Shown here piece after piece: positions 23,878 to 44,220 of a stretch of 64,000 nt of DNA. Position 1 is the first letter of the stretch. Every line of letters begins with the position of its first letter. The stretch spans positions 2,747,194 to 2,811,193 of the forward strand of contig ML992501.1 of NCBI GenBank assembly GCA_010093995.1. The letters run 5' to 3'. A program made the position numbers and the translations under genes. The DNA comes from Elsinoe ampelina. Lineage: Eukaryota. The notes beneath the pieces are model-generated. The model did not search any database. It saw only the letters and a list, made by a program, of their open reading frames with translations, and was not told the DNA's origin.

Positions 23878-24109
23878 TTGAGTCATGCAAAAGCAGTGTC
23901 AGATCCAGTTATTGGTTGAGTGTTTTCATTTGTGGTGGATTTTGGCTTCTGTCATGGATATACAGCTGTTTCGGATTCAAGCCGGCCACCCCAGCCTTGG
24001 CGACCGGATTTGCGACTGCACCACCAAAAATTAGCTGCTGAATAGGCGGTGAAGGTCATAGATTGATAGAGCTTAAATAACTCGTCGCTGCCGTGAATTT
24101 GTACATGAA

Positions 24110-26685: not shown

Positions 26686-28809
26686 ACGTAGAAGAATAAT
26701 AGCTTAGTAGTCTTAAACGCTAAAGTACTACCTTCTCTAGAGAAGTATAGGATTAAGTACTGTTCCTTAGATAGGTAGTCGACGACATAGAGTACTACGT
26801 TATAGCTATCTACTAGAGGTAGACTAGTAATAAAGTCTATAGTAATATATTACTATAGTCTTACCGGAATAGGCAATAGTAATAGAAGGCTAGCTAGTAA
26901 GCTATAGCGAGCCTTTAAGCGCTTATAGTTATAATAGTTAGCGACGAACCTCTTAATATTACTTTTATCTAGGGATATAGAAAGTAGACTTAATTATAGT
27001 AGCTATTTTAGTAGCTCCTTTATATATATAATTCTTTAATATATAGACTTCTTAAATAACCTTTACGGCTATAGAGAAAGGCACTATTAACTAGCTAGTA
27101 GTATATAGTATTTCTTTCTTAATTATAACATTAGTTAACGGCAACTATTTCCTCTTTAGAAAGGCTTCTATTATATAGTAGATGCCTTAAGCTAACTCGA
27201 ACTTAGTGTCTTATAAGTTAGCCTTAGCTACCTTATTAAAAAGGGGTAAAGGCTCTTCTATAGTCGAAATAGGTGCTATATAGATGCCTAGTTCGATAGC
27301 TAAAATAGGCACTAATATAGAGGGCGAAATAGGAGGTAAACTAGGAGGTAAAATAGGTAATAAACTAGATAGCGAACTAGTTCGCGAACTAGATACTAAA
27401 CTAGATCTTAGTTCGGCTTAGATTAGTAATTTAGTTCGGATACGACCTAGATTTAGTTCGTCGATAATGTACTAATCTAGTACCTTATATAGTAGTAGTG
27501 TCTAGTATAGATTAGAGTTTTCTTTTAAACGTAGTATATCTCTATTCCTTCTTATAAGTGCGTCGGCCTTACTATTAGTAGCGCTAGGCCTATATATAAT
27601 CTTAAAGTTAAACTACACAAGGTAGAGAGCCTAGCACACTTAGTAGCGTAATAGCTTCTAAGTCTTTATAAAGTGTATTAAGGATTAGTAGTTAGTAAGA
27701 ACGTAGATAGCCTTATTAGATTAAGTACTTATAAGCTTAGAGGCCTACTCCTTAAAGGCTTAGACGATAGCTAGTAGTTCCTTATTATAGATAGTATAGT
27801 TATATTTAGCTTTATTTATAGATTTACTAAAAAAGGTAATAGGCTAAAGAATATTAAACTTATTATATTACGATAGAATTCTAGCGGTAGTAGTATCGGA
27901 GGTGTCTATCTTAAGGACTATCTATTTTGAGTAATTAAAGTATATAAGAGTAGGCGCGCTTATAATAGTATACTTTATATAATTAAATATAGTAGTATAC
28001 TTATTGTTCTATAGTATAGCGTCCTTCTTAAGTAGATTATTTAGTAGCTTAGCGATAGTACTAAATCCCTTAATAAAGTAGTAATAGTAGCTATAGAAAC
28101 TAATAAAGCTTCTTACCTAAGTAGTATTACTAGAGGCTAGCTATTTCTACGCCTATATAGCTTCTACCTTCTTAGGATCTATCTTAACTCTATCTCGGCT
28201 AATAATAATACTAAGATACTTTACTTCTATTAGGTAGAACTTACTCTTTTTAATATTAGTATTTAGGTCTAATTTATAGAGCTACTAGAGTACTAGCTTA
28301 ATATACTTAGTATACTCTCTATAAGTGCTATTAGTATAAATAAGAATATTATTAAGATAGATTAATATAAAGTACTCTAGTATATTAATAAAGTTATAAT
28401 TTATAAATCTCTACTATACTATAGAGGCATTAGTAAAACTAAATAGCATTACTAACTACTTAAAGTTACTTATATATATAAAGAACATAGTAAGATCTTT
28501 ACTAGAGTAGTCGTAGAGTTAGGAATAACCTACCTAGGGTAGAGTTAGGTAGACTCTACTTAGCACGCTAGGTAGGGTAGAGTTAGGGTATATTAGCGTA
28601 GGGTAGAGTTAGGGGTAGGTAGTAACTTATTAGGAAGCCTCTTAACTCTACCTACTACTAACCTACCTCTATAATTGTTAGGTCTTATATAAGCAGCTAT
28701 TACTTAGCCTAAATTTTGCTATTATATATATAATTTGTAATTTATTTAGAATAGAAATAGCACTAATTATAGTCTCTAATTATAGTATTCTATACATTTA
28801 ATTGTTGTA

Positions 28810-31468
28810 TTTTAATGTTATTCTATATCCTCCTAGATAATCTTATACGCTTTACTAGAGGCTTATAGTTGTTATTGTTACTATCTTCCTTATAGTTGCT
28901 TATATTAAATATACTTTCTTAAGTAGGTAAGTTAAATAAGTTATCTACCTCGTCTAGTGCCTTATCTATATAGCTACTATCGATAGGATTACTACTTAAT
29001 AGAGATAGTCTAGTTATAAGCTTTATAATTACAAGCCGCTAGATTATTTATATAGAGAGTTAGTGTCTTCGATTACTAATAATATTCTTTGCTATATTAA
29101 ACATGCGTTCGATACTAACGCTAGCGATTAGTATAGTAAGAACATCTCGAGCAACTTTAGTAAGCTATAGGAAGTCTTTCTCGTTGTTCTTCTACTAATT
29201 AAGCACTTTAAATCCTAGTATACTCCGGACTAGAGGGATATTAAGGTAGTCCTTACCCTCTTAATAAGTAGTTTAAGAACTCTCCTATTAATCCTAGATT
29301 GCTAAGCTAACGTTAGACTAGAAGCTAAAGCTTATCTAGGGAGAGGTAAGCTATATAGATAACCGAGGTTGACGGAACTAATTATCTTTGTCTTTAAGTA
29401 GAGTTATAATACTTAGGGTCTTAGGTAGACTATCTAGGGAAGGTAGTTTACTATTATAGCAACTAAGGTAGTTAAGAAATTACTTACAATACTTAGCCTT
29501 ATTAGATTTCTCCTAGGTGTTGTTCTATGATATAATTAGCTTACTATAAGAATATATTTATAAGCTACAAACCTTATAGGGGGTTAGCTTTTATATAGAG
29601 TCTAAGACTATACTACAATTAAAGAGGTACTCTCTCTCGTTATTAGTACAATTATAGTACTTTAATAATTTATCTCGACTATACTCCGCTACAAGTCTAA
29701 CTACTTTAGGCTAAGGCTTATTATTATTCCTCTCCTTGTCTATAGCGCTATCCTCTATCTTATCGAGGAAGTTAAATAGACAATTATACATTAACTAGAT
29801 ATATGTAATTAGTAGGCGGCTAATAGTACTTAACTAAGTAGTTACTACCTTAAAGTTCTTAAGCATCTTTGTTACTAGCTTAAGGTGTAACTACTCTATA
29901 CTATTAAGCTAAAGACGTTTAAGATCCCTATAATCCGGATTACTAGTATTAGTACTAACTAAGTCAGGTCCTATACTAGTAGAACTCTTTATTATAATCT
30001 CCTATTTAAGCTATTTGTCGATAAATAGTCTAAGCTTAAGACTACGCTTGTATATATTAAAGGTTAAGTTCTACTACGTCTTAATGTCTTAAATAATAGC
30101 CTTACGCTCTCGAGGTATTATAGCTTATTAAAGGGTTATAAACCTCTTAAAGCGTTAAGGTAATTAATTAATAGTAATATAGGTTATATAGAGCTAGAAA
30201 TTAATTAGACTATAATTAAAAACTATAATTAAAATACTAACCTTACGAAGTAAGTTTAGCACTAAAAGTTTAGTAGAGATCTTTCTTAAGTACTGCCTTT
30301 TAAGCCTAGTAGCTTGTTTATTCTCCTTAGTAGTCTTAAGGTTAAGGTGCTTAATAATGTTCTATATAACAAGATTAATAATATGTGTAAGGCACGGAAT
30401 AGTGTTTTCTTATGCACTCTATGTAATACCTACCTGCCTAAGAAGCCTTTATACTATCTTACGTAATGTACGGTTGTTACTTGCATTGTTAGCGGTAATA
30501 GCGAGGAGTCTATCCTAGAGATTATAGTGCCGGAGTGTCCGTACAAGTTTAGTAGCTATATTATAGCCTATGTATTAACCTCGAAGTAGTACTATATCTA
30601 ACAATTGTTCCTAGAGCTACTATTAGTTATTAATATAATAAGCTTTAATTATAATAAAGCCTAAATGATTGTTTATAGACTAGCTATTAAGGGCAATTAA
30701 GACCTTTATTGTCTTATTAAGATCTTATAATAACGTTTAATAGAGGTTTTTAAATTCGTTATTAAAGAGAGTAGCGAAGTAAGTGTAGCTTAGTATAAAT
30801 ACTCCTAGGTGTAGGAACTATATAAACCGTTAGAAGGATAGTTACTCGATAGTACGAAATGACTAATTATAGTCTACTACTATTCGAACAAGCTCTAAGT
30901 AGAATTAAGTAATTAAATACAAGAGAACATTTTTCTAATTAATTACTAGACAACTTCGAAGCTATATAAGTGCTTAGTCTACTAGATTATAGGCCAATTT
31001 CGTAACCTTAGTATAGGTCTTTATATCCCTATAATTGCTTATTATATTTATACCTTACTTTAATAGTAATAGGTAAGTAAGTGTATTACTACACTATAAG
31101 TAGTAAACAAATAGACGTCTATTAGATACCTATATAGCTTCTCTAAAGTATGCCTATACTAATCTAGTTCTTAGTGTTAAGTTCTAGTTTAGTAGGCTAT
31201 ACTCCTTAGAGAAGCTATAGCAAGATACCTATAGTATTAAGTTCTACTACTATAGAAAGCTTTAAAGATCTACTTATTCCTTAGCAAATATCAAAGAATT
31301 AAGCATTAGACACTTAATAAGGTACTATAGTATAGGCTAACTACCTCTATTACGTTGTTATATAGTAAAGTAATAACTAGCTAGATCTTAGGGGACGGGG
31401 ACTACTATAATTAGTAGAGTTAATAGAAGACGTAATTATAGATTAATTAGATTATCGAAATCCGCTAT
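28810..31468 (-). pseudogene. hAT transposase of element C (boundaries approximate)
   Basis: RIP-altered IAL(D)S(W)S ~30690, LAITA(D)NASNN ~30490, IPCLTHIINL ~30390, and dimerisation domain FP.L.KVARDVL.I.IASVSIERMFN ~29100-29200. Confidence 0.88.
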
Positions 31469-31799
31469 AGTAGAGTATAGAGGTTATATAACTTGTATTA
31501 TTAAACAGAAGTAGTATAGGTATTTATAATAATGCTACAATTTTTTAGCTAAACAAATTTAAAATGTTTAGATAAGTAATATATTTAAGTTTAGACTATT
31601 AGAAAGTCTTCTCTATAATTACTTTACGTAAGGTATTTAAAAACGCGCTAGTAGCCCCTAAGTAATTATAAACATTAATCACTAATATCGAGGAAGGATT
31701 AAGGTATTATTATATTATATTATTATAGTAAAGAAATTCGTTACTCTACCTATACTATTTCTCTAGTATAAGCTACTACCTAAAACTCTAATCCTTAAC

Positions 31800-32325
31800 T
31801 AACTACTAACTATAAACTTCTAATAGTAGCGCTTAGCAAGGCTAGAGTCCTTATAATTAATAGTAATATACTTAGCATAGATAGCGTTAAGGTTTATATC
31901 TATAAATAAGTATTAATCGAGGTTTTAACATATATTAAATAGACATATACCTTCTATGTATCTAACAATAAATACCTCTACTAATTCTTAGAGAGCTCTA
32001 AGTACATTAGCTATCTAGCGATTAACCTTAAGAGTAAGCTATATATCTTAGGATATCTTATAGATAAGGCAAGAAAAGGGAAGTTTATAGAATAACAATT
32101 AGACATTCTTCTAGTAGTAACAAATCTCGTAGAGAGTAATAGCTACCTTCTATTAGTTCTACTCTATAATTAGAAACTGTAATAAATACTACCGGGCTTA
32201 AATCTCTACTTCTTTCTAGGCTTAGCCTAGGATTATAGTGTCTTCTTTATAGTAGGTTACTTCCCTTTATAACTTCTTTCTCTAGAACTAGTAGTAGCTT
32301 AAGGATAACCTTTTTTACGTACTAT
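31800..32325 (-). pseudogene. Histone H3-like gene, copy C (RIP-mutated); introns 32189-32143 and 31950-31900
   Basis: Literal RFKPG|T, EI..Y*K, KLPFS.LI, AL*E..E.FIV.Y.E|D.NLNAI.AK..TI..KD..LAKR; reversing C>T/G>A gives [54 protein letters not shown]. Confidence 0.88.
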
Positions 32326-32666
32326 AGTAAAGTAAGAGGTTGTTTATATATAGCTAAGAAGTTAAAGTTTATATATAAAATTTTAGTATATATAAAATAG
32401 TAAAAAGAAGAGGCTAGAGTAAGGAATATAAAACCTATTATTAGATACGCTATTTACTATTAATAATAGAGAATAATAGGATAATAGTAAATAACTTATA
32501 TAACAATAGCTTTCTTATTCCTTACCCTAGCTTCCTCTTTTATTATTTTATACATTTATAAATTATAAATTTCTAACTTTAACTTTCCCTTTATACCTTT
32601 ACCCCTTTTACTTACCTTATGTATAATTCATATACTACAAATACTCTTTTTATTACCTTTAATTAA

Positions 32667-33935
32667 ATATCTATACCTATAAAAGACATTAAGATAGAGT
32701 AGAAAGAGTAGGTAGTAATTAAGTAGGAAGAAGATAGTAGAGAGAATATTCTAAGGGAATTATTAGGGGTATTAATTATAGTTTCTTATTATATATAGTT
32801 ACTAACAATACTAGGGATTTAATTCTAAGTAGTAGAAAATTAAACACTAAATCTCTTAGCATAGCGCTAGTTAATCTAGAAAGGGCTATAAGACTAGATT
32901 TGTCGCTAGACACTCTAGACCTCTAAGTTAAAGCGCTTATACTATTAAGTAAAGAGATTATACTTCTTAGCGCACATATAAGAAGTAAGCCCTCTATACT
33001 ACTTAAGTAGTAGATCGTAAAGCTATTAGTACTTTATGTAACAAGATTAAGAGAGAGAATAGGTAGGATTAGCTCTCTACTAAAGAGTAGAATATTAGAA
33101 TTCATAATACTATCGAAGATATAGAGGAGAAACGCTTTAATAAATAGAGGAGCGGTAAGTCTATTATTATAGTATACTATTATAGTAGTACTAATCGTTA
33201 TAGGCGAGTAGCTTAAATTTATATTTATATAGACCTATAAGAAATAGACTAGCATTAGAAAGACTCTATAAAAGCAAGAGTATAATAAGATTATTAAGCA
33301 TATCTAAGATAATATAGCAGTAAATTAGTAAGGCAAACAACAGCTAATATAAGCCTATATATATATCTATAGTACTAGTAGTATTATTAAGAAGCTATAG
33401 TGCAAAATTTACTAGGATAGCTATATAAGCCTTGTTACTAACGACACTAATAATAAGTAGGCATATAAGATTTTTTTTAAGTAGCTTAAAGAGCTCCCTT
33501 CTATAGAATTAGTAGTGTTATAGGATCCTAACTAGTAGTAAGTTTATTATAGTCTTTAATTATAGTATATTCTAACAATTGTATAGGCTAGTTGTTCCTC
33601 TACCTCCTAAGTATAAATACATCTCCGAGCTTAAACTCTATAGTACTAGGCTATACTATAAAGGAGATAATAATAATAAGTGTAAGGAGAAAATTAAGAA
33701 GAATAAGAATAAGATCGAAAGGATGTTAGATAAGGAAGCTAGTAATAACGAGGATTATTATCTAGGTATTAAAGTTAAAGATAAGTCGGATAGTAAGGAT
33801 AAGAATAATAAGGTTATAGAGCACTCCGAGCTTAAGACTAATAGTAATAACAATAATAAGGATAAGAATAAGAATAACAATATAAAGGATAAGAATGCTA
33901 CTAAGGTTAAGGATAAGGAGATATCTAATGCCTAG
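32667..33935 (+). pseudogene. Unknown cargo gene X, copy C, with acidic (RIP-reversed D/E-rich) C-terminal tail; start approximate
   Basis: Intron-containing; homologous to 37399-38719; ORF 33579..33935 is its N/K/D-rich last exon. Confidence 0.72.
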
Positions 33936-36249
33936 ATATAATAGGGATTAAAAGTATAATTCTATAAGTAGTAGTATTAGAGAATATAGTTTATAATTAG
34001 AATCTATTATTAGTAATTATACTCTGTTATTTTATGTATTACTAATAACCTATAGAGTGTAAAATTCATAACTCTACCCTAACCTACCCCTTAGCTTAGC
34101 TAACCCTAACTCTACCTACTCTAGCGGGGGTTAGCTAAGCCTAGAGGTAGGTTAGGGTAGAGGTAAGTTACTTAGAGAAAATTCTAACTCTACTCTACTC
34201 TACGACCACTCTAATCTTTACTATTAATAGAGTTATAGAAGTAGTAGAAGGCTTAATAGATGTTAATCTTACTAAACTATTTAGCTTTACTTACGCGTAT
34301 AAGTATTTCTTCAATAAAGAGTAAAGAATAGATATCTTACTTAGTTACCTTATTAAGGCTATAGTAGTTAATATAGAGATAGAGTTCTCTACCTAGCTTA
34401 TAAATAAAGAGAATAGGTAAGAAATAGCTAGTAGAACTTAATATAATAAAGCCTTTATTAAGATATTCTTAGATAAATTATTCTACTATATTAAGTTCTT
34501 CTAGTAATAGGTAGTATAAAAGCTCTATATATAGTAGCTTAGTACTATCTTTAAGTATAATATAGTTATTAAAATCCAGCCGATACTAAGGAAGTATATT
34601 AGATTATTCTTTAGAGAAGATATTAGTAAACTTCTATAGCTCCTCTAGGAGAACTACTATAGGATCTAGTTCTAGCTTAGAAACTATCTAGTAGTAGTCT
34701 TTAATATTCTTTACTAAGATTATAAATACCTTATTCTTTTAGTATTTAGCTACTAATATAAAGGTAGCTACGCTAATAAAGGTAATAGTTAGCTTTTCCT
34801 ATTTAGCATTACTTATATAGGTAAGTAAGTAGAAGAACTTATATATTAATTAAGTACTATAGGAGATTAGCTTAAACTCTCCCTAATTTAGCTTAAAGTT
34901 TAACCTAAGAGCTAGTAGCTAATATAGTCTAGTTCGTCCTAACTTAGTAGCTAAGCTAGAACTTAGTTTACAAGTTAGACTAGAACTAAACTAGTTCTAA
35001 ACTAGAGTAGTAGCTTTACTAAGCTAGATTTCTAGATCTAAGCTAGGCTTAGATCTAGATTCTAGTCTTTTAATTAGCTATAGTAGCTCCTACTTAACGA
35101 CAACTAGTAAAAACTCTTCTTTATACGTAACTTAGCTATACTTATAGTTAATAGTAGCTCTATTAGCTTTAAGCTAGCCAAGGCTAAGAATAATATTAAA
35201 ACGGCTAATATCTATAATATAGAAGATAGTAAAAGTATTTAGCTTACTAGAGATAGTAGTAGTAAGGGAAATGCTATAAGTAACTTACTCTATTAGAATA
35301 CTATTATAAGTCTAAAGCTAAATAGAGCTAGCTAACGCTATAGGGCAGCTAAAGCTCTTTAGCTTATTAAGGACGTTATAATTAACTATAGCGCTAATAA
35401 GTGCACTAGTATTAATAAAGGCTTAGAGCGTAATAGTATAAGAGTAGTTATAAGAGTTATAAATAGTAATAGGAGTTATAATAGTAGGGATATAGTAGCT
35501 AATAACGCTATTTAGTAACTATATATCTCTAGATCTATCTCGAATTACTCTTATTTCGCTAGAGAATAGAACTTATTCTCTAGCTACTTATTTCTCTAGC
35601 TAGAGTAGCTAGTAGACTTATAGTCTATTTTAGAGTTAAACTAAGGCTAAACTAGATCTAGTTTATAGGCCGAACTAGTGTCGACCTAGTTACTTAATTC
35701 GGCTAAGCAATTCTAAAGCTACTATATCTCCTCTATAGCGCTAATATATATAGGGTATATAGTAGTATAAGTAGCCTTCTCTAAGGCGCTAGCTATATAC
35801 TTAGTAGAGATATGTCTAGGCTTACTACATATATAATAGGTAAGTGCTAGAGCCGGACGGAAAGGCTTAGGGTAGTTTTTAGGTTAGGTTAGGTACTAGA
35901 ATTGCTACCTATAACCTAACCTATAGCGATACTAGTACCTAAAGCTTAGCAACTATAACCCTCTAAGCCTTAGGTAGTGTTACTTAGCCTTAGGTATATA
36001 GTTAGTTATAGTGTTGCTTATAACACTACCTAATAGTACCTATAGGTGCCTAAGAGTCGAGGAGTAGATATATATCTTAAGAACTTAAGATTTAGAAATT
36101 AAAATTTAAAAGTTAAAGGTTATAATTATGTTTATTAATTACGCTAATCTTACTAGCACCTCCTATCTACTCTTATAGCCTACGCCTTACTTGCTTATCT
36201 ACCTTTATAGAATAATTGTCCTTACTATAAACTGTCTAATTGTCCTAGT

Positions 36250-36779
36250 TATATGTATTAAACTTTATATAATAGCAACAAGTAAGCTATAAATCTTTCT
36301 AGTTAATAGTAACTTACTTAGCATAAATACAATTAAGGTTTATATCTAAGAATATTAGTATCTATAATAGTATTAAATTTAAATAATAGATACCTTCTAT
36401 ATACCTAATAATAAATGCCTCTATTACTTCCTAAAGTGCTTTAAGAGCTTTAGATTAGATATAAAAGCTTTTGTCTTAACAAATATAGCCTCTAATAATC
36501 TTATAGATAAGGTAGCTAAAGGAGAGCTTATAGTAGAGAAGTTTAGTTAACTTCTAGTAGCGACAAATCTCTTAGAGGGCAATAGCTATATAGTATTAGT
36601 AATATAATATAATAATCAATTGTAATAATTATACTACTAGCCTTAAACTTGTTCTTCTTTCTAGAAGTAATAGTTGTCTTATAAGGTTACTTAGTAGTAG
36701 AAGCCTTAGGTCTACTAGACGACTTGCCCTTATAACTACAACTATAGGTTAGTACTATAGTACCTCTCTTAGGAGGCAT
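36250..36779 (-). pseudogene. Histone H3-like gene, copy D (RIP-mutated); introns 36634-36586 and 36393-36346
   Basis: ATG CCT CCT AAG start; literal KFKAS|TIAL*EICRY*KLTKLL..KLSFS.LI.KI..*SKALKAL*E..EAFII.Y.E|D.NLNCI.AK*VTIN*KDL*L, an H3 histone fold after RIP reversal. Confidence 0.9.
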
Positions 36780-37398
36780 AGTTACTATTACTACTAAGGA
36801 TAGAGTCTTAGGAGGTGCTTATAATATAAAGTAATTTTACAGTAGTAAGAGTAAGGTAGTAGAGGGCGTAGAAAGTAACAAGGTAGATATAGTAGTAGTA
36901 TAAAGAAAGAGAAGTAGAAAGAGAAGAGGTAAAAGAAGTAGAAGAAGAGAAATACGTAATAATTTAGTAGCTAGTAATAGCACGGCTAACAATAGGAATG
37001 TAATATTATAATAGAAATATAAAATTAGTAAATTAGAAATGTATAGTGTATAGAATACTTGCTTATTATAATATTATTTATAATAGTAAGGCATATAATA
37101 TTAGATTTGTTCGAACGCTTAGAAGAAGAGGAATCTAGATATTATAGAGTACTAACAATAAGTACGTAATAATCTAGCGTAATAATACAATACTAATTTA
37201 GTATACTATAATTCTTAAAAACCTTATATTTTATATTTTATATTCTACTCTAGCTACCTTATTGTTACTTTATATATAGTAGGAAGCTATATTACTCTCC
37301 TCTATTCTCCTTCTTCTTCTATTAACTTTCTTTCTTCTTGTCTCTACTACCCTTTTATTTCTACGCTCTTAAGTTTAACTTTTATATCTTATTTTACT

Positions 37399-38719
37399 AT
37401 AGTAACCTCTCTAGATACTCCTATAGCTAATATACCTTCTAATACCTCTCCTAGTAGCTCTCCTAAGATTAAGAATAAGTTTAATAAGTTCGAAACTATA
37501 ATAGAGATAATTATTATAGCGTTTTATTACGAGTATTAAGCTAATAGGTATAGGGCTTTAGGTCTAAGTAGGCTAAAATCGAATACTAGATCCTTTAGCG
37601 TAGTTAAGGCAGCAAGGCACATCACAGTTGTCTAACTAGTTTTAAAGCAGGTTTAAGTAAGCCTTTAAAGTAGAATATTTAGAACATTATACACTAAGAT
37701 AAAGATACTTAATAGTCGGCTAAGGTTAAGGCACTTAAAGCAGCTAGAGATGCCAATTATAGCATAAAGAGAAATTTGCTTAAGAAGTTTAATATAAATA
37801 CTTAAGTCTAGAACCTTAGTAAAGAAGCAAAGGTAGAACTCCTTATAGAAAAGATTAAGGAAATAAAGTAGCGCCGTTTTAACGCCTAGTAAAGCTATAT
37901 AATTATACTACTATATTATTACGTTTAACACTAATAGATTATAGATAAATAGCTATCTAGTAAGTTTAGAAAAGTCTATGTTAAATAGTAGCGTATTAGA
38001 AAATTTGCTATACGTTAAGAGTATATAGAAGTTCTTATAAAGGCAAAGGTAGCTTATACTACTAAGTCTAGCGAGGAGAATAATATGTTAAGAGTAGCTA
38101 AGTAGATATATAGTTCTAGCGGAATTCTCGAGAAGCTTAAGTATAAGATCTATATAGCTAGCGCTACTAAGCTTACTATTAATAAAGGTACTAACGAGAA
38201 TGCTAAGAAAAAGTACTTAAAGTTTGTCTAGAAACTTAGTAAGGAGAGTAGGCTTACTACTATCTCCGATCCTAACTAGTAGTAAGTTCTCTATTATTAT
38301 TACGTATTATTATTACGTTAGTATACTAATAAATAGCAGGGCTTATAATTCTATGCCTCTAGCTAAGTATTAACTACTCGAGCTAATCTATCTTATAGAT
38401 AAAGGTAAATATATAAAGCCTAACAACAATAACAAGTGTAAAGAAGTATATAAGCTAGACTATAACTCTAAGATCGAGAAACTAGCTAATAAGTACAAGA
38501 TAGATAAGTAGTATACGAAGTTTAAGGGGTTTTCCTCTAATAAGAATAAGATTATTAATAAGAGAGAGAGAGTTAAAGTAGAGAGTTCTTTAGAAGGTAG
38601 AGATAAGGAGGAGAATAATAATAAGAATAATAATAAGAATAATAATAAGAATAATAATAAGGAAGGGGATAAGGAAATAGTCGATACTAAGGAAGATAAA
38701 TTTACTAGATTTAACTAGT
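37399..38719 (+). pseudogene. Unknown cargo gene X, copy D, with acidic tail; boundaries approximate
   Basis: Shares F.SKQ.KIEHQI.Q.S..T.F.A..S.PL.Q..I..RD, RF(D).W and DPNW|gtaagt with copy C; AATAATAAG run at ~38610-38660 reverses to D/E. Confidence 0.72.
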
Positions 38720-39793
38720 GGATTTTCTATACTATAATCAACTACTAAGTAGTTTAATCTATAGTATAGTCCGGCCCTTTTATAGATTTAAGTTTTATAA
38801 CAAGATCTCTTCCTATATAGCTACTATTGTTATTTATGCTTCTAATTGTTACCTCTAATAATAGTAAATTATCTATATTATTACTTCTAACGATAGATTT
38901 CTATTACTATTGTTGCTATAAATAATAGGAAGTACTAGATATATACGCTATCTCGTTCCTATTTATTCTTCTTTCTAAAACCTCTCTTCCTTATTATTAT
39001 AGCTTCTCGCGTATAACTCTATTCTAACCTAGAAGATCTAATCCCCTACTAGCCTTATGCTATAACTCGTAGTAACTGCGCTAGGCTACTATACTTACGT
39101 TAGTATAAAGCTTATATCTACCGTATAACTAAGTAATTTATCGATAGCGAGGAAAGGTAGACTACTTATATCTATAATAATAATAGAGGCTCTAAACTTC
39201 GCTATAAAGCCTATCGCTCGTATAATACCCCTTGTAACTTTATTAGTATTCCTAATCTAATACTACTATATTCTCTAATAAGTATTAGTATAACAGCTCC
39301 TAGACTAATAATATTTTTAACCTTATCGACATATAGTATACACTTAATTGTTACTATCTTAATCTTATCCGAGATTAGATTATAATCTTTAATATACGCC
39401 GTAGTATTAAACGCTAGTAGAACGAGCTAGATAATTCTAAATCCTAAGGATCTTAATAGTTCTAATTCTTCTAGTAACTAGTTTAGTAGTATAATGTAAA
39501 TAAAGCGTTAGCGGGCTAATAGCTTTAGTAGGTTTTTCATGACATAGATATGCTTTTAATTTTAAAAATTTTCTACCCTACCCTAACATAGATATGCCTT
39601 TAATTTTAATTATGTTACCTATTCCTTAGCCCCTATATAATATAAGTCTAGCTTATAGAAATTGATATACCTCTTGCTTTAAAGTTTCTATAGTATAGTA
39701 TAGGATTTATTATTACGTATTATAAATACGTTAATAAACATTCTATAACAAGTTATCTACCTTTATTAAATAACATAATCTACACTAATCGAC

Positions 39794-42460
39794 ATGTCTA
39801 AAGCTTCTAACTTTAAGTCGGTACTCGACCTATAACTTAGAGATACTATATATTTCTCTCTAGCTATTCTAGTAGAATTATATAGCTTTATAATCTCCGC
39901 TTAGAATATTAGACGTAATAGTAGAATATGACAATTATAACTCCTTAAATGCTTGCCTTTTTAACCTAGTAAGAGATCTAAGGATTAACCTCTATAATAA
40001 GCCTAGAAAGACTAGTAGAGTCGAACAATTATAGTATCTATATATAGAGAGAGCATAAAAAATATACTAAATTAGAATTCTAAAGCACGTTCTAGAGGTC
40101 TATAGGCAAATATTATAGAAGCTACTAAGATTTACAATAGAGAACTACGAGTTATTTATAATAGGTATAGTAATATACTTACTTATCCTACTTACTATTA
40201 CACTAGTAATAAAGCAATAGAGAGACATCTTAAGTTCTAGAAATACACTATAGTTATTAAGTACCGCTACGAGTAAAGCCCTGCCTAAAAAGCCCTTAAG
40301 TAATTATAATAGTATATAAAGAGCATTTACTAAATTGTCTCTCTATTCTCTACTAACATCTTCTACTATAAGCTTGTTCGCGTAGTTACTAACTATAACT
40401 AGTCTTTCTACATAGTTAAGTATCTTACCTTTAGCTAATTCCTCCGCTTCCTCTAACCTAATATTACTATACCTAGCCGGACTCTTTTTTAAGCGACACT
40501 AGTAGCATAATTTAAGAAGTTACAAAAATCGCTACTCTCTAACCTCGGTAAGAACACTAAGCTTTTAATAGCGTTAGATAGATAGTCTACTAATAACTAC
40601 TTAGAGTTTATTATAATTAAAAGCTATTTTATTAATAACTAATAGCAATTATAAGAGTAGCTCCTAGAAATAACACTCCTTCGAGGTTACTATACTAGTA
40701 AAGCTATAGTAAATAAGGTAATATAGGTACTAAAAGATATATTAGTTAAGCAATAACTACTCGTAGTTATAGCAGATAATATATTAAACAATAGAATACT
40801 CCGAGAGTCTCTCGAAAGAAGCCTAGGTATACTAGATATTAAGTAAAATACAAAGGAGAATACAATTCTACGCCTAGTATATATTATTAATCTTGTTATA
40901 TAGGACATTATTAAGCATCTAAAACTTAAGACAAGCAAAGAGATTAACATAGTAGAGAGGTTATAAAACTACTATATCTAGGATATTATAATATTAGTCT
41001 CTATCCCGAATTTACTATAGAAGGTATATAACATTTATTATATTGTTTTATTACGTCCTAATGTTAGTAAGCTCTACATAATATATATTATAATTAATAG
41101 TTCTCTATAATAGTTTAAACGATTTATAGACCTCTAGAAGCATCTACTACCTAAGAAGAGATACTAAGTTATACGTGATATTAAGACACGCTAGAATTTA
41201 ACATATAATATATATAAGCGAGTATTAAAGCTTAAACCTTTTATTAAGGATTAGCTTAAGAATAAGACTACGCTCTAAGTACCGAGGACTTCTTCTAAGG
41301 TATTAATATCTAAACTACTCTCTAATGTTAATAACTACGACCTTACTAAGTTATTACTTAATCTAAATAAGTAGTAGCATCTTAAATCTGTTATAGTAAT
41401 ACTAGAGAACTTTAAGAAAGCAACAATATAGCTAAGTACTAGTAGCCGACCTCTTCTCTAGTATATATAGACAATGTATAATACACTCTTTAACTTCTTA
41501 GATAAAATTAAAGAGGGCCTAATTAGCACTAAGGATTATAACAATCTACCTACATAGCTAGCTACTATATAAAAGGTAGTAGTAAAGGGACAAGAGAAGC
41601 TTAAGAAATACTATACGTAAACTAAGGATAGGAAGGATATACTCTATAACTATATAACAATTCTTAACCCCTCTAAGAAGCTTATAGCATATAATGTAAA
41701 TACCTATAGTCTTTCTAGTAAGTAGTAGCTAATAATACTTAGGACATAGAGACTTAGGAACCTTACTATAAAGACTACTATTATAAGGAGTTCTTATAGT
41801 ACCTTCGTTAGTATAATAAGATAGACCCCTTAATTGCTTTACTAGCCTCTACCCCTAAGCTATTATATTACTAGCAATAAGACTAGTTTAACCGACTAAA
41901 ACAAAAGGAGCAAAGTTACGCTCTATTACTATAAAGCGATAGTCTATACTTCTTATTTGTTCCCTCGAAGCGTACTATAGTTAAAGAAGGTAAGGACTAC
42001 CTTACAACACTACCGGTCTATATTTAGAAACTTAATGTCTTATAGTAGTAGAAAGAGAAGAAGGAAGAATATCTATTACTATTATATATAGCAAAAGATA
42101 TTCTAGTAATCCTAATTATAGAGGTTAGAGTTAAGTAAGTGTTTAACATTACAAAGGATATTATTAGTGCGTAGAGGTATAAATTAGTAGCCTAAACTAT
42201 TTAGTAGCTTATAATGTTAAAGTATAAGCTTAAAGTAGCCTCGCTATTAGGACGGATTAATATAGAACTAGAGATAGAGGATAAGGCTACTAATGCTAAT
42301 AATTTACTTAAATTGTTATTAAGGACTAATATAAATTAACTAGACGATATTACTATAGTACTAAGCTATAGTAATAATAACTACTCTAAATTAGAGAGAG
42401 AGAGAGCGTAGAGAGGTTAATAGTATTCTAGTAGAAAGCGTCGGCGGATTTACTAGCTAG
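39794..42460 (+). pseudogene. hAT transposase of element D (boundaries approximate)
   Basis: V(T)ADN..NN ~40770, I(PC)L(AH)IINLV ~40870, RDIKTR(W)N(S)TY ~41180, (WW)KEK..Y..L..IAKDIL.I.I.EV.V(ER)VFN ~42050-42150. Confidence 0.88.
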
Positions 42461-44220
42461 ATTGTATTTGTACTTCTAGTATAATTTATATATTTAACTT
42501 ACTACCTCCCCTTACATAATAAAGTAGCGTAATAAAGTTAGGCCTAAAAATTTGTAAGGTATAGTAACGCGCTAAGCTATAGAGTAAGCGCTTTAACTAC
42601 TAACCTATTAGGTACTATTAGGTAGGTACTAGGTTAGGTACCCCCCCCCCTAAGAGCGACACTATAACTATATACTAACTCTACCTACCTTAGTATAGTA
42701 CCTAACCTAGAGTAACCTCTCTCTACTAAGCTTTTGTACCTAACCCCTACCTAATATAGTACTATATCTACCTAAAAACTACCCTAGAAAGGCTATAGAG
42801 TACCTCTAGTAATAGAGTAAAAGGTAGATAGAGCTATAGGTATAGAGGTAAAATAACATATATAAGTAAGTATAGTAGTAGTATAGCTTATAGCTAGTAT
42901 AGAACGTAAAGCCTAAGTACGCTTAGTAATAAGGTTATTCTATTAGATGTTATAGTTAGTAGCGTAGGCCTTAGTAATAAAGATAGTAAGGTTGTTAGTA
43001 TTATAGTTAACTAGAGTATTACGTAGCTTATTAGATATCTTCTAATAGATCTAGTATAGCTACTTCTCTTTAGCGATCTTAGTATAAAGGGTATACTTAT
43101 TAAACTTACTAATAAAGAAGTTAAATATACTATTATACTAGAAGAGGTTAGCGAACTAAGTATATATAGTAGCTCTATAGTTAGGATTCTCGAAGCGCTA
43201 GGCTAGGAGAGTAAGGACCTCTTTAACGCTAATAACGTTGTTACTAGCTAAGTCTATAATAAGGGTATAAGCTTCTCTAGAGAGGCGTAAGTATAGATAG
43301 GTAAACTAGGTATCTCTTATAGAGAAATAATCTATATTAGTGCATATCTTATTCCTTATCTAGTGCTTAAAGACCTTAAACTACTCTAGTATACCTATGC
43401 TAAAGATAGTAGGGTCTAGTATCTTTTCTAATAAGGTAAAGCTACGTATAGAAAGGGCTAGTATACTATACTCTATCTCGTTTCTTAGTTAGTTTACCTT
43501 AGCCTTAAGCTCTTAGATTTTGTCTAGGTAGTATATAGCTTAGGTAGTAACGCTATTAGTATAGGACTAAGATATATCTAGTTCGGATTAGAGGTTACCG
43601 AGCTAGGCCTAAGTAGTATCTAACTTATAGTAATAGTAGAAAGTATTAGTATAAGTGTCTTTTACCTATATAGTTTACTTATTATAGAAGGACTTAATAT
43701 ATTTAAATACGTCTCTTAGTGCCTATATACTATACTTTTCCTATAGCTTCTTAAGAAGTATAGTGTTAGAAAGAGCAAAAAGATTATAGTAAAGAGAGTA
43801 GATAAAGGTATTATTATTATTAGAAATAGGTTAAGGTAGCTTACTTTAGTAGTGCTCTTTATTGCTATAGTTAGATCGAGCTATACTTAGTATAGTTAGT
43901 TATAAATATAATAGTAGAAAAAGTTAATATATAATAAAAAGAGTATTTAAAAATTTAACTAGTAGCTTACTTTCTTCTTAAGTTATTTATAACTTAACTT
44001 ATTACCTTCTTCTTATATTTATAGTTTATAGTATTAAATTATATAGTAGTAGCAAGGATCTATTATAGTATACGTAGGAACTATAATTATAATAGCTTCT
44101 TCTTTAATTCTTTAATTCTTTATAAGTAGTAGTTATTAGTAGTTATATAAGTAGTAGGATAACTAGATAGTTTAATAGCTCTATTACTTAGTTATAGTCT
44201 TTTTTAAAGTCTTAATATAG

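Follow-up and report, generated by a model that had tools for sequence, protein, structure and literature searches.

Element C, a hAT DNA transposon of Elsinoe ampelina, carries a three-exon gene resembling histone H3 (H3L) on the minus strand (32325 to ~31800 of the window, the whole stretch of 64,000 nucleotides analysed here), and the question raised by this locus is whether such a gene is a captured host histone that drifted or one that the transposon has kept. H3L genes in hAT elements are already known from two papers. In Pyrenophora tritici-repentis (Ptr) the carrier is an element of ~5.6 kb with a hAT transposase and a central ORF, and the available text states that the captured H3L ‘may have undergone drift’ (Manning 2013, PMC3538342); for Pseudocercospora, Cercospora and Sphaerulina, the accessible parts of the second paper describe intronless retrocopies of host H3, captured independently of Ptr (Dhillon 2019, PMC6710886). 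No literature on hAT-borne H3L was found beyond these two papers, subscription journals being mostly out of reach. Set against the accessible parts of both, what appears to be new here is a single intron-bearing lineage, an interface signature and a modular loop. Element C and the comparison element D were delimited as follows:

28495..28502, no strand: duplicated target site (TSD) of 8 bp, left, identical to 34214-34221
28503-34213, no strand: element C, hAT DNA transposon of 5,711 bp with terminal inverted repeats (TIRs), 8-bp TSD and hAT dimerisation domain
28503..28520, no strand: left TIR of element C, 16 of the first 17 bases matching the other end
28850..31560 (ends approximate), minus strand: RIP-inactivated hAT transposase (PF05699 Dimer_Tnp_hAT)
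34196..34213, no strand: right TIR of element C, pairing with the left end
34214..34221, no strand: 8-bp TSD, right, identical to the left copy
35868..42786, no strand: element D, comparison copy, 6,919-bp hAT element with TIRs and 8-bp TSD

The element C transposase contains many in-frame stops and is inactive; its PF05699 match (~29254-29027, stops read as X) is above the cut-off (E 2e-10, 40.8 bits), while that of element D is just under it (E 4e-4). Among 22 stretches examined, both ends were detected in 16, eight of which agree at all 8 TSD places in purine/pyrimidine terms. Element C interrupts another repeat that is contiguous at other loci. Positions 25589-64000 of the window hold nested LTR-type repeats, and both C and D are inserted into one such repeat. 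GC content falls from ~50-60% to ~30% near 24,000, and the AT-rich part shows the pattern of repeat-induced point mutation (RIP), a TpA excess and CpA/TpG loss, with TA/AT of ~1.7 and (CA+TG)/(AC+GT) of 0.04-0.3 in 30 loci. Elsewhere, L048, L050 and L054 are full-length D elements with both TIRs and non-matching flanks, which suggests recombination between copies.

A DNA search of the genome found at least 41 H3L matches (40 of 50 candidates scored), falling into families at 92-100% (C, six matches), 82-84% (C2, 10), 70-73% (D, 11) and 66-69% (E, 11), plus three fragments, and a Pfam search of the genome added five more. The copies analysed comprised 10 of C2, 12 of D, 13 of E and five of C, or six including L005, a mosaic left out of the family-C calls; a broken copy (L058) and two duplicates (L056 and L057) were also left out. 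The single window copy lies below the cut-off for Pfam Histone (E 0.011), whereas less damaged sister copies exceed it (E 4.8e-6). Given these sister copies and the number of genome matches, the likeness of copy C to H3 is not due to chance, and a dead H3-like gene inside the hAT transposon is confirmed as real. Stops interrupt every translated H3L copy among the 40 of 41 listed, no stop-free H3L match was found in the genome, and the only stop-free H3-type matches are a canonical H3 and a CenH3 of the host, each intact and present once. Within-family variation is mostly transitions. Both the gene of element C and all other H3L copies detected in this genome have been killed by RIP.

The gene of element C has the following parts:

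32190..32325, minus strand: H3L exon 1, 136 nt; N-terminal tail, divergent and without lysine at position 9
32143..32189, minus strand: H3L intron 1, 47 nt, interrupting the T45 codon in phase 1
31951..32142, minus strand: H3L exon 2, 192 nt; alpha-N, helix 1, loop 1 (+3), helix 2
32015..32017, minus strand: TAG in the codon aligned with F84, which before RIP read W, Q or R; register taken from C2 and E
31900..31950, minus strand: H3L intron 2, 51 nt, interrupting the D106 codon in phase 1
31800..31899, minus strand: H3L exon 3; loop 2, helix 3, C-terminal extension; true stop not placeable

The extent proposed by an initial annotation made from the letters of the window is confirmed; the gene starts at 32325 on the minus strand and has three exons and introns of 47 and 51 nt, and exon 3 starts at the same place as in the intact relatives L096 and L101. 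The same introns had been proposed for C and D, and both phase-1 sites are indeed common to the two (49 and 48 nt in D); KLPFS at the Q68 position, also claimed, is kept in surviving C/G bases of the copies, and both loops 1 are three residues longer and differ in sequence, as described (26 residues from R72 to E94, against 23 in host H3). The MARKK start stands as a reading for C (and E), with a reconstructed ATG that survives in no family-C copy. Likewise, in the proposed GY(M) motif both G102 and M104 are reconstructed, being present in none of the family-C copies; two family-E copies and intact relatives still have G102, and position 104 is F or I in intact relatives, so M104 of C is a reconstruction only. 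N-termini read M-A-R-K-K in C and E and M-A-R-T-K in C2. In element D, where H3L starts at 36779 (minus strand), the N-terminus is M-P-P-K with a surviving ATG, resembling the M-A-P-K of host CenH3.

H3L proteins were identified in Paraphoma chrysanthemicola, Ptr (the published H3L), P. seminiperda, Pyrenochaeta and three JGI records. Canonical H3 dominated the output of a profile search (1.84 billion representatives) and of an alignment search, which together gave two members, P0028 and P0037. Scanning with an exon-2 pattern yielded 10 metagenome stretches, eight of them intact H3L genes of two lineages and two (L099 and L104) with no H3 match; an exon-3 pattern yielded no metagenome stretch, and 11 H3-like genes on viral contigs are all intronless and lack the H3L signature. 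Introns in the eight intact metagenome genes lie exactly at the sites used in C, and both sites are common to families C, C2, D and E and to intact L096, L097 and L101, while host H3 and host CenH3 have no intron at either; P0001, P0003 and P0277 show read-through at the intron 2 site. By eye, both introns are also present in the Ptr consensus (PMC6710886 supplement, as accessible). The P. eumusae H3-like consensus of the same source, by eye, has two introns at the sites of C, the second of 48 nt, though the accessible text calls these genes intronless, and a ‘16-aa insertion’ is reported there for the P. fijiensis H3-like gene (48 nt equals 16 aa); the P. eumusae consensus, again by eye, is without Y103, N110 and the YY residues, and its helices 2 and 3 are nearer to canonical H3.

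In a tree of 25 sequences and 80 columns, all 14 H3L sequences fall into a single clade, separate from the 11 other H3s (UFBoot 98), with H3L of C grouping with Ptr H3L, apart from H3 and CenH3; four of the rows are RIP-damaged and possibly attract each other, and the outgroups close to H3L are one fungal H3 and one fungal CenH3. Shared introns and a single clade together argue against the published independent captures of intronless retrocopies. At the level of sequence comparison, C, Ptr H3L and the intact fungal and metagenome genes are shown to belong to one lineage derived from canonical H3, although the shared introns could instead come from an unsampled fungal H3 gene.

As RIP makes only transitions, transversions between family column calls were used to measure selection. 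Over 138 aligned codons, 91 transversions separate C from D, so their divergence extends beyond RIP, and the predicted depletion of substitutions in the fold was found at first and second positions (14/164 sites in the fold minus loop 1 versus 40/112 in the tail, loop 1 and C-end, p=5e-8). The fold also has fewer transversions than the introns (20/95, p=0.007), depletion recurs in the C-E, C2-D, C2-E and D-E comparisons but not in C-C2 (p=0.07), and the four-family tree requires 12 steps at second positions versus 26 at third (p=0.017). A synonymous control inside the fold is borderline for C-D (7/36 fourfold sites versus 14/164, p=0.07), and its four-family parsimony version is not significant (p=0.8). 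Independently of substitution counts, exon lengths across the four families differ by multiples of three only (136, 136, 145, 169; 192, 183, 192, 198), a rule not followed by intron lengths (47, 47, 49, 50; 51, 50, 48, 55). These sequence patterns show purifying selection to have acted on the H3L fold while the four families diverged. The initial reading, an old transposon-borne lineage with a conserved fold and a variable tail and loop 1, is thereby upheld, though in weaker form: besides the borderline synonymous control, the tails of C and D barely align, so the tail excess may reflect replacement rather than fast point change.

That reading placed the changing surfaces in the tail and loop 1, and a signature at the H3-H3′ interface went unnoticed. 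N110 is found in 13/13 H3L rows with data, Y130 in 12/12 and Y/F131 in 12/12, and none of these in the 11 other H3s; Y103 is present in 13/14 H3L sequences and Q68 is absent in 14/14. Y130 and Y131 of C fit the DNA but are not RIP-proof and rest on the intact relatives. Positions 130 and 131 presumably belong to the same H3-H3′ surface as 110. In canonical H3, as the accessible text has it, C110 lies within the H3-H3 four-helix bundle, which is held by H113-D123 (PMC11001638). H113, D123, L126 and A127 of this bundle are kept in H3L, H113 reading as Y in RIP-hit rows. With signature residues at this contact, the novelty of H3L is not confined to tail and loop, and the most fixed part of it appears, from the aligned residues, to lie at or beside the H3-H3′ interface. 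At tail position 9, where C has no lysine, L096 has R and P0001 has P, Ptr gives no match and L101 has K in a changed context (all by eye); the N-terminus of L096 is almost that of canonical H3.

Loop 1 varies in length relative to host H3 (C2 +0, C +3, D +3, E +5, L101 +7, host CenH3 +4) and is canonical in 8/10 intact H3L members; the +3 loop is therefore not the family-wide trait it was first taken for, sister family C2 being canonical. The C loop resembles the family E loop at the protein level with synonymous differences, which makes it old. Between C and C2, 8/30 loop sites differ, in addition to a 9-nt indel, versus 6/97 sites in introns (p=0.004). The CGC TAG reported in this loop is present at 32020-32015. 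Unmutated copies had been proposed as a means of deciding between W and Q; the codon aligns with F84, but TAG was found in 6/6 family-C copies (5/5 pattern matches), contigs of four public runs show no other letter among the 40 of 90 matches listed, and no RNA runs were listed. At the F84 position the 13 other H3L sequences have F (10), I (2) or Y (1) and never W or Q, and because the site is hydrophobic in these, W is favoured over Q with reasonable confidence as the residue before RIP; a one-codon shift would allow Q85.

Family comparisons also show exchange. Transversions between C and C2 amount to ~1% upstream of 32240 (partner gene, exon 1) and ~7% downstream, which places a recombination breakpoint close to where exon 1 ends, at window position 32240; the TIRs of C and C2 differ. 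L005 and L007 are mosaics carrying tracts of the other family, and since pieces are exchanged in this way, tail and loop 1 change partly by recombination. Loop 1 of C2 (L007-L016) is compatible with host H3 over 16 codons (70-85), a match with a chance probability of 0.003 under transposon codon use and 0.23 under H3's own codon use, in a codon window chosen after the fact and among RIP-hit rows that match more easily; gene conversion from host H3 is suggested as a plausible source of this loop.

Element C carries a second gene, head-to-head with H3L, and a paired motif:

32818..33935 (end approximate, start not placed), plus strand: RIP-inactivated partner gene, head-to-head with H3L
32164..32185, minus strand: 9-bp motif, paired with a 13-bp spacing, within intron 1 of C

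Column calls of the partner, mapped to the window, match the intact L096 partner (E 3e-10, 32818-33180) and the intact L101 partner (E 4e-9, 33200-33520; E 0.01, 33657-33710), while raw copies gave no match at E 0.01. The partner gene is homologous in C, C2, D, L096 and L101, with intact partners beside intact H3L in two metagenome lineages. Its protein is basic and helical at the front and acidic in the tail, and matches no Pfam family, no atlas entry at 0.9 (top score 0.78) and no fold (structure model pLDDT 55.6, pTM 0.29). Between the H3L start and the partner lies a 60-bp inverted repeat (83%, 19-nt spacer; 32403-32541), and this segment is likely within a bidirectional H3L/partner promoter. 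The motif, a 9-bp unit repeated at 13-bp spacing, was counted against Markov sequences (20 runs): element C has five pairs (mean 0.9, maximum 3), element D four (mean 0.9, maximum 4), intact L101 four (mean 0.2, maximum 1) and a control retroelement one (mean 0.7). Intron 1 holds a pair in C, D and L101; L096 has exact units, with a degenerate intron-1 pair.

The closest published counterpart is the Ptr element, which like C has an H3-like gene between hAT TIRs with a central ORF and, in the consensus accessible through PMC6710886 and judged by eye, both introns, a head-to-head partner and a motif pair in intron 1; its H3L protein shares G102-Y103, N110, S124 and Y130 with the C lineage. According to the available descriptions, the copies in Ptr are intact, almost identical to one another and transcribed, with ESTs (PMC3538342), and have a canonical-length loop 1, whereas here four diverged families are RIP-dead and C has +3; C has its transposase downstream of H3L, both on one strand, whereas the Ptr layout is like that of element D. 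The copies of Dhillon 2019, as described in its accessible text, are likewise RIP-inactivated H3-like genes, carried by hAT elements that have TIRs and 8-bp TSDs and lie within AT-rich blocks, but a retrocopy, as understood there, does not describe C, which has two introns at sites that host H3 lacks.

The H3L gene of element C is, judging by these comparisons, very probably a dead representative of an H3 lineage that is old, under selection and specific to transposons. Were H3L instead a host H3 captured by hAT elements, once or repeatedly, and then drifting as a neutral passenger, the death of all copies here, the weakness of the fourfold-site test and alpha-N codons still near those of host H3 would be as expected, but two introns that neither host H3 nor CenH3 has and that are common to Ptr, P. 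eumusae and metagenome genes, indels that only preserve frame, depletion of the fold relative to introns and open frames in distant relatives would not; drift is already largely refuted and we regard it as highly improbable. Loss of Q68 is a feature of CenH3. An extended loop 1 and F84W are named as CenH3 features in the accessible part of PMC3156773. The hint of a CenH3 affinity in the initial annotation could accordingly be extended to an origin from, or mimicry of, CenH3, in which a long loop 1 and W84 would give entry to centromeric chromatin and steer insertion or drive. C does have a divergent N-terminal tail, a +3 loop, S68 in place of Q68 and possibly W84, and host CenH3 (G000:C15) has a divergent tail, S68, W84 and a +4 loop; the copies also lie within AT-rich repeat blocks. 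W84 occurs, however, in 0/13 other H3L, most intact loops are canonical, L096 starts like canonical H3, and host CenH3, a single intact gene that keeps C110, I130 and R131, falls outside the H3L clade and has introns at other sites, so that descent fails and the reading as a whole is quite improbable. W84 in C, if real, would be convergence on CenH3, and mimicry by family C alone is possible.

For the old selected lineage, an anti-silencing function is plausible but falls somewhat short of probable. A live H3L protein would pair with host H4, its altered H3-H3′ surface would favour self-pairing or looser nucleosomes, and its tail would lack K9, a site at which methylation by the host silences repeats; in the least certain step, the partner and the paired 9-bp motif would guide the histone to the DNA of the element itself and hold that DNA open. 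Such a module would work like the VANC anti-silencing system of Arabidopsis VANDAL transposons, whose activity is shown in the accessible account (PMC5735166), without being a member of it: the likeness lies in an accessory transposon gene and in short motifs repeated within non-coding stretches of the element, and VANC is not a histone; the comparison is one of analogy and implies no homology. A selected decoy would act otherwise, with H3L or its partner soaking up H4, chaperones or methyltransferases, or loosening target DNA for the transposase, and with no nucleosomes formed on the element. This fits the selection data equally well, and a conserved H4-facing fold with a changed H3-H3′ surface, in which N110 replaces the bundle cysteine (PMC11001638, as accessible), is consistent with it; against it, H113, D123, L126 and A127 are retained, as they should be in a protein that still forms tetramers, and the paired motif points to targeting in cis. 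We hold a decoy to be doubtful, though well worth keeping in view. The preferred reading, joining a dead copy, an old selected lineage and the proposed mechanism, is as a whole likely. Its widest form can be offered only tentatively: that hAT transposons across Dothideomycete orders maintain their own H3, with a private H3-H3′ interface, a K9-less tail and a dedicated partner, expressed with it, that reads the paired motif and places variant nucleosomes on the element so that heterochromatin is escaped, and with a loop 1 swapped in an arms race that includes re-import from host H3 and CenH3-like convergence in C.

The common introns, the single clade, indels that preserve the frame and the depletion in the fold indicate that the transposon has kept its own histone variant for a long time, as against the published view of a captured, drifting H3. 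Manning's open question, whether selection acts on the captured gene and why, thereby becomes directly testable on the intact relatives; copy C itself is dead, and the residues singled out are those of the H3-H3′ surface, tail position 9 and loop 1. Among these relatives, L096:5088-7192 contains intact H3L and partner genes in metagenome DNA of 56% GC, with a methyltransferase-like ORF nearby; no hAT transposase or domain was found within 14 kb, so either the gene pair is not hAT-bound everywhere or the element is larger. L097, L100 and L102 each carry a second, degenerate H3L ~3 kb away on the opposite strand.
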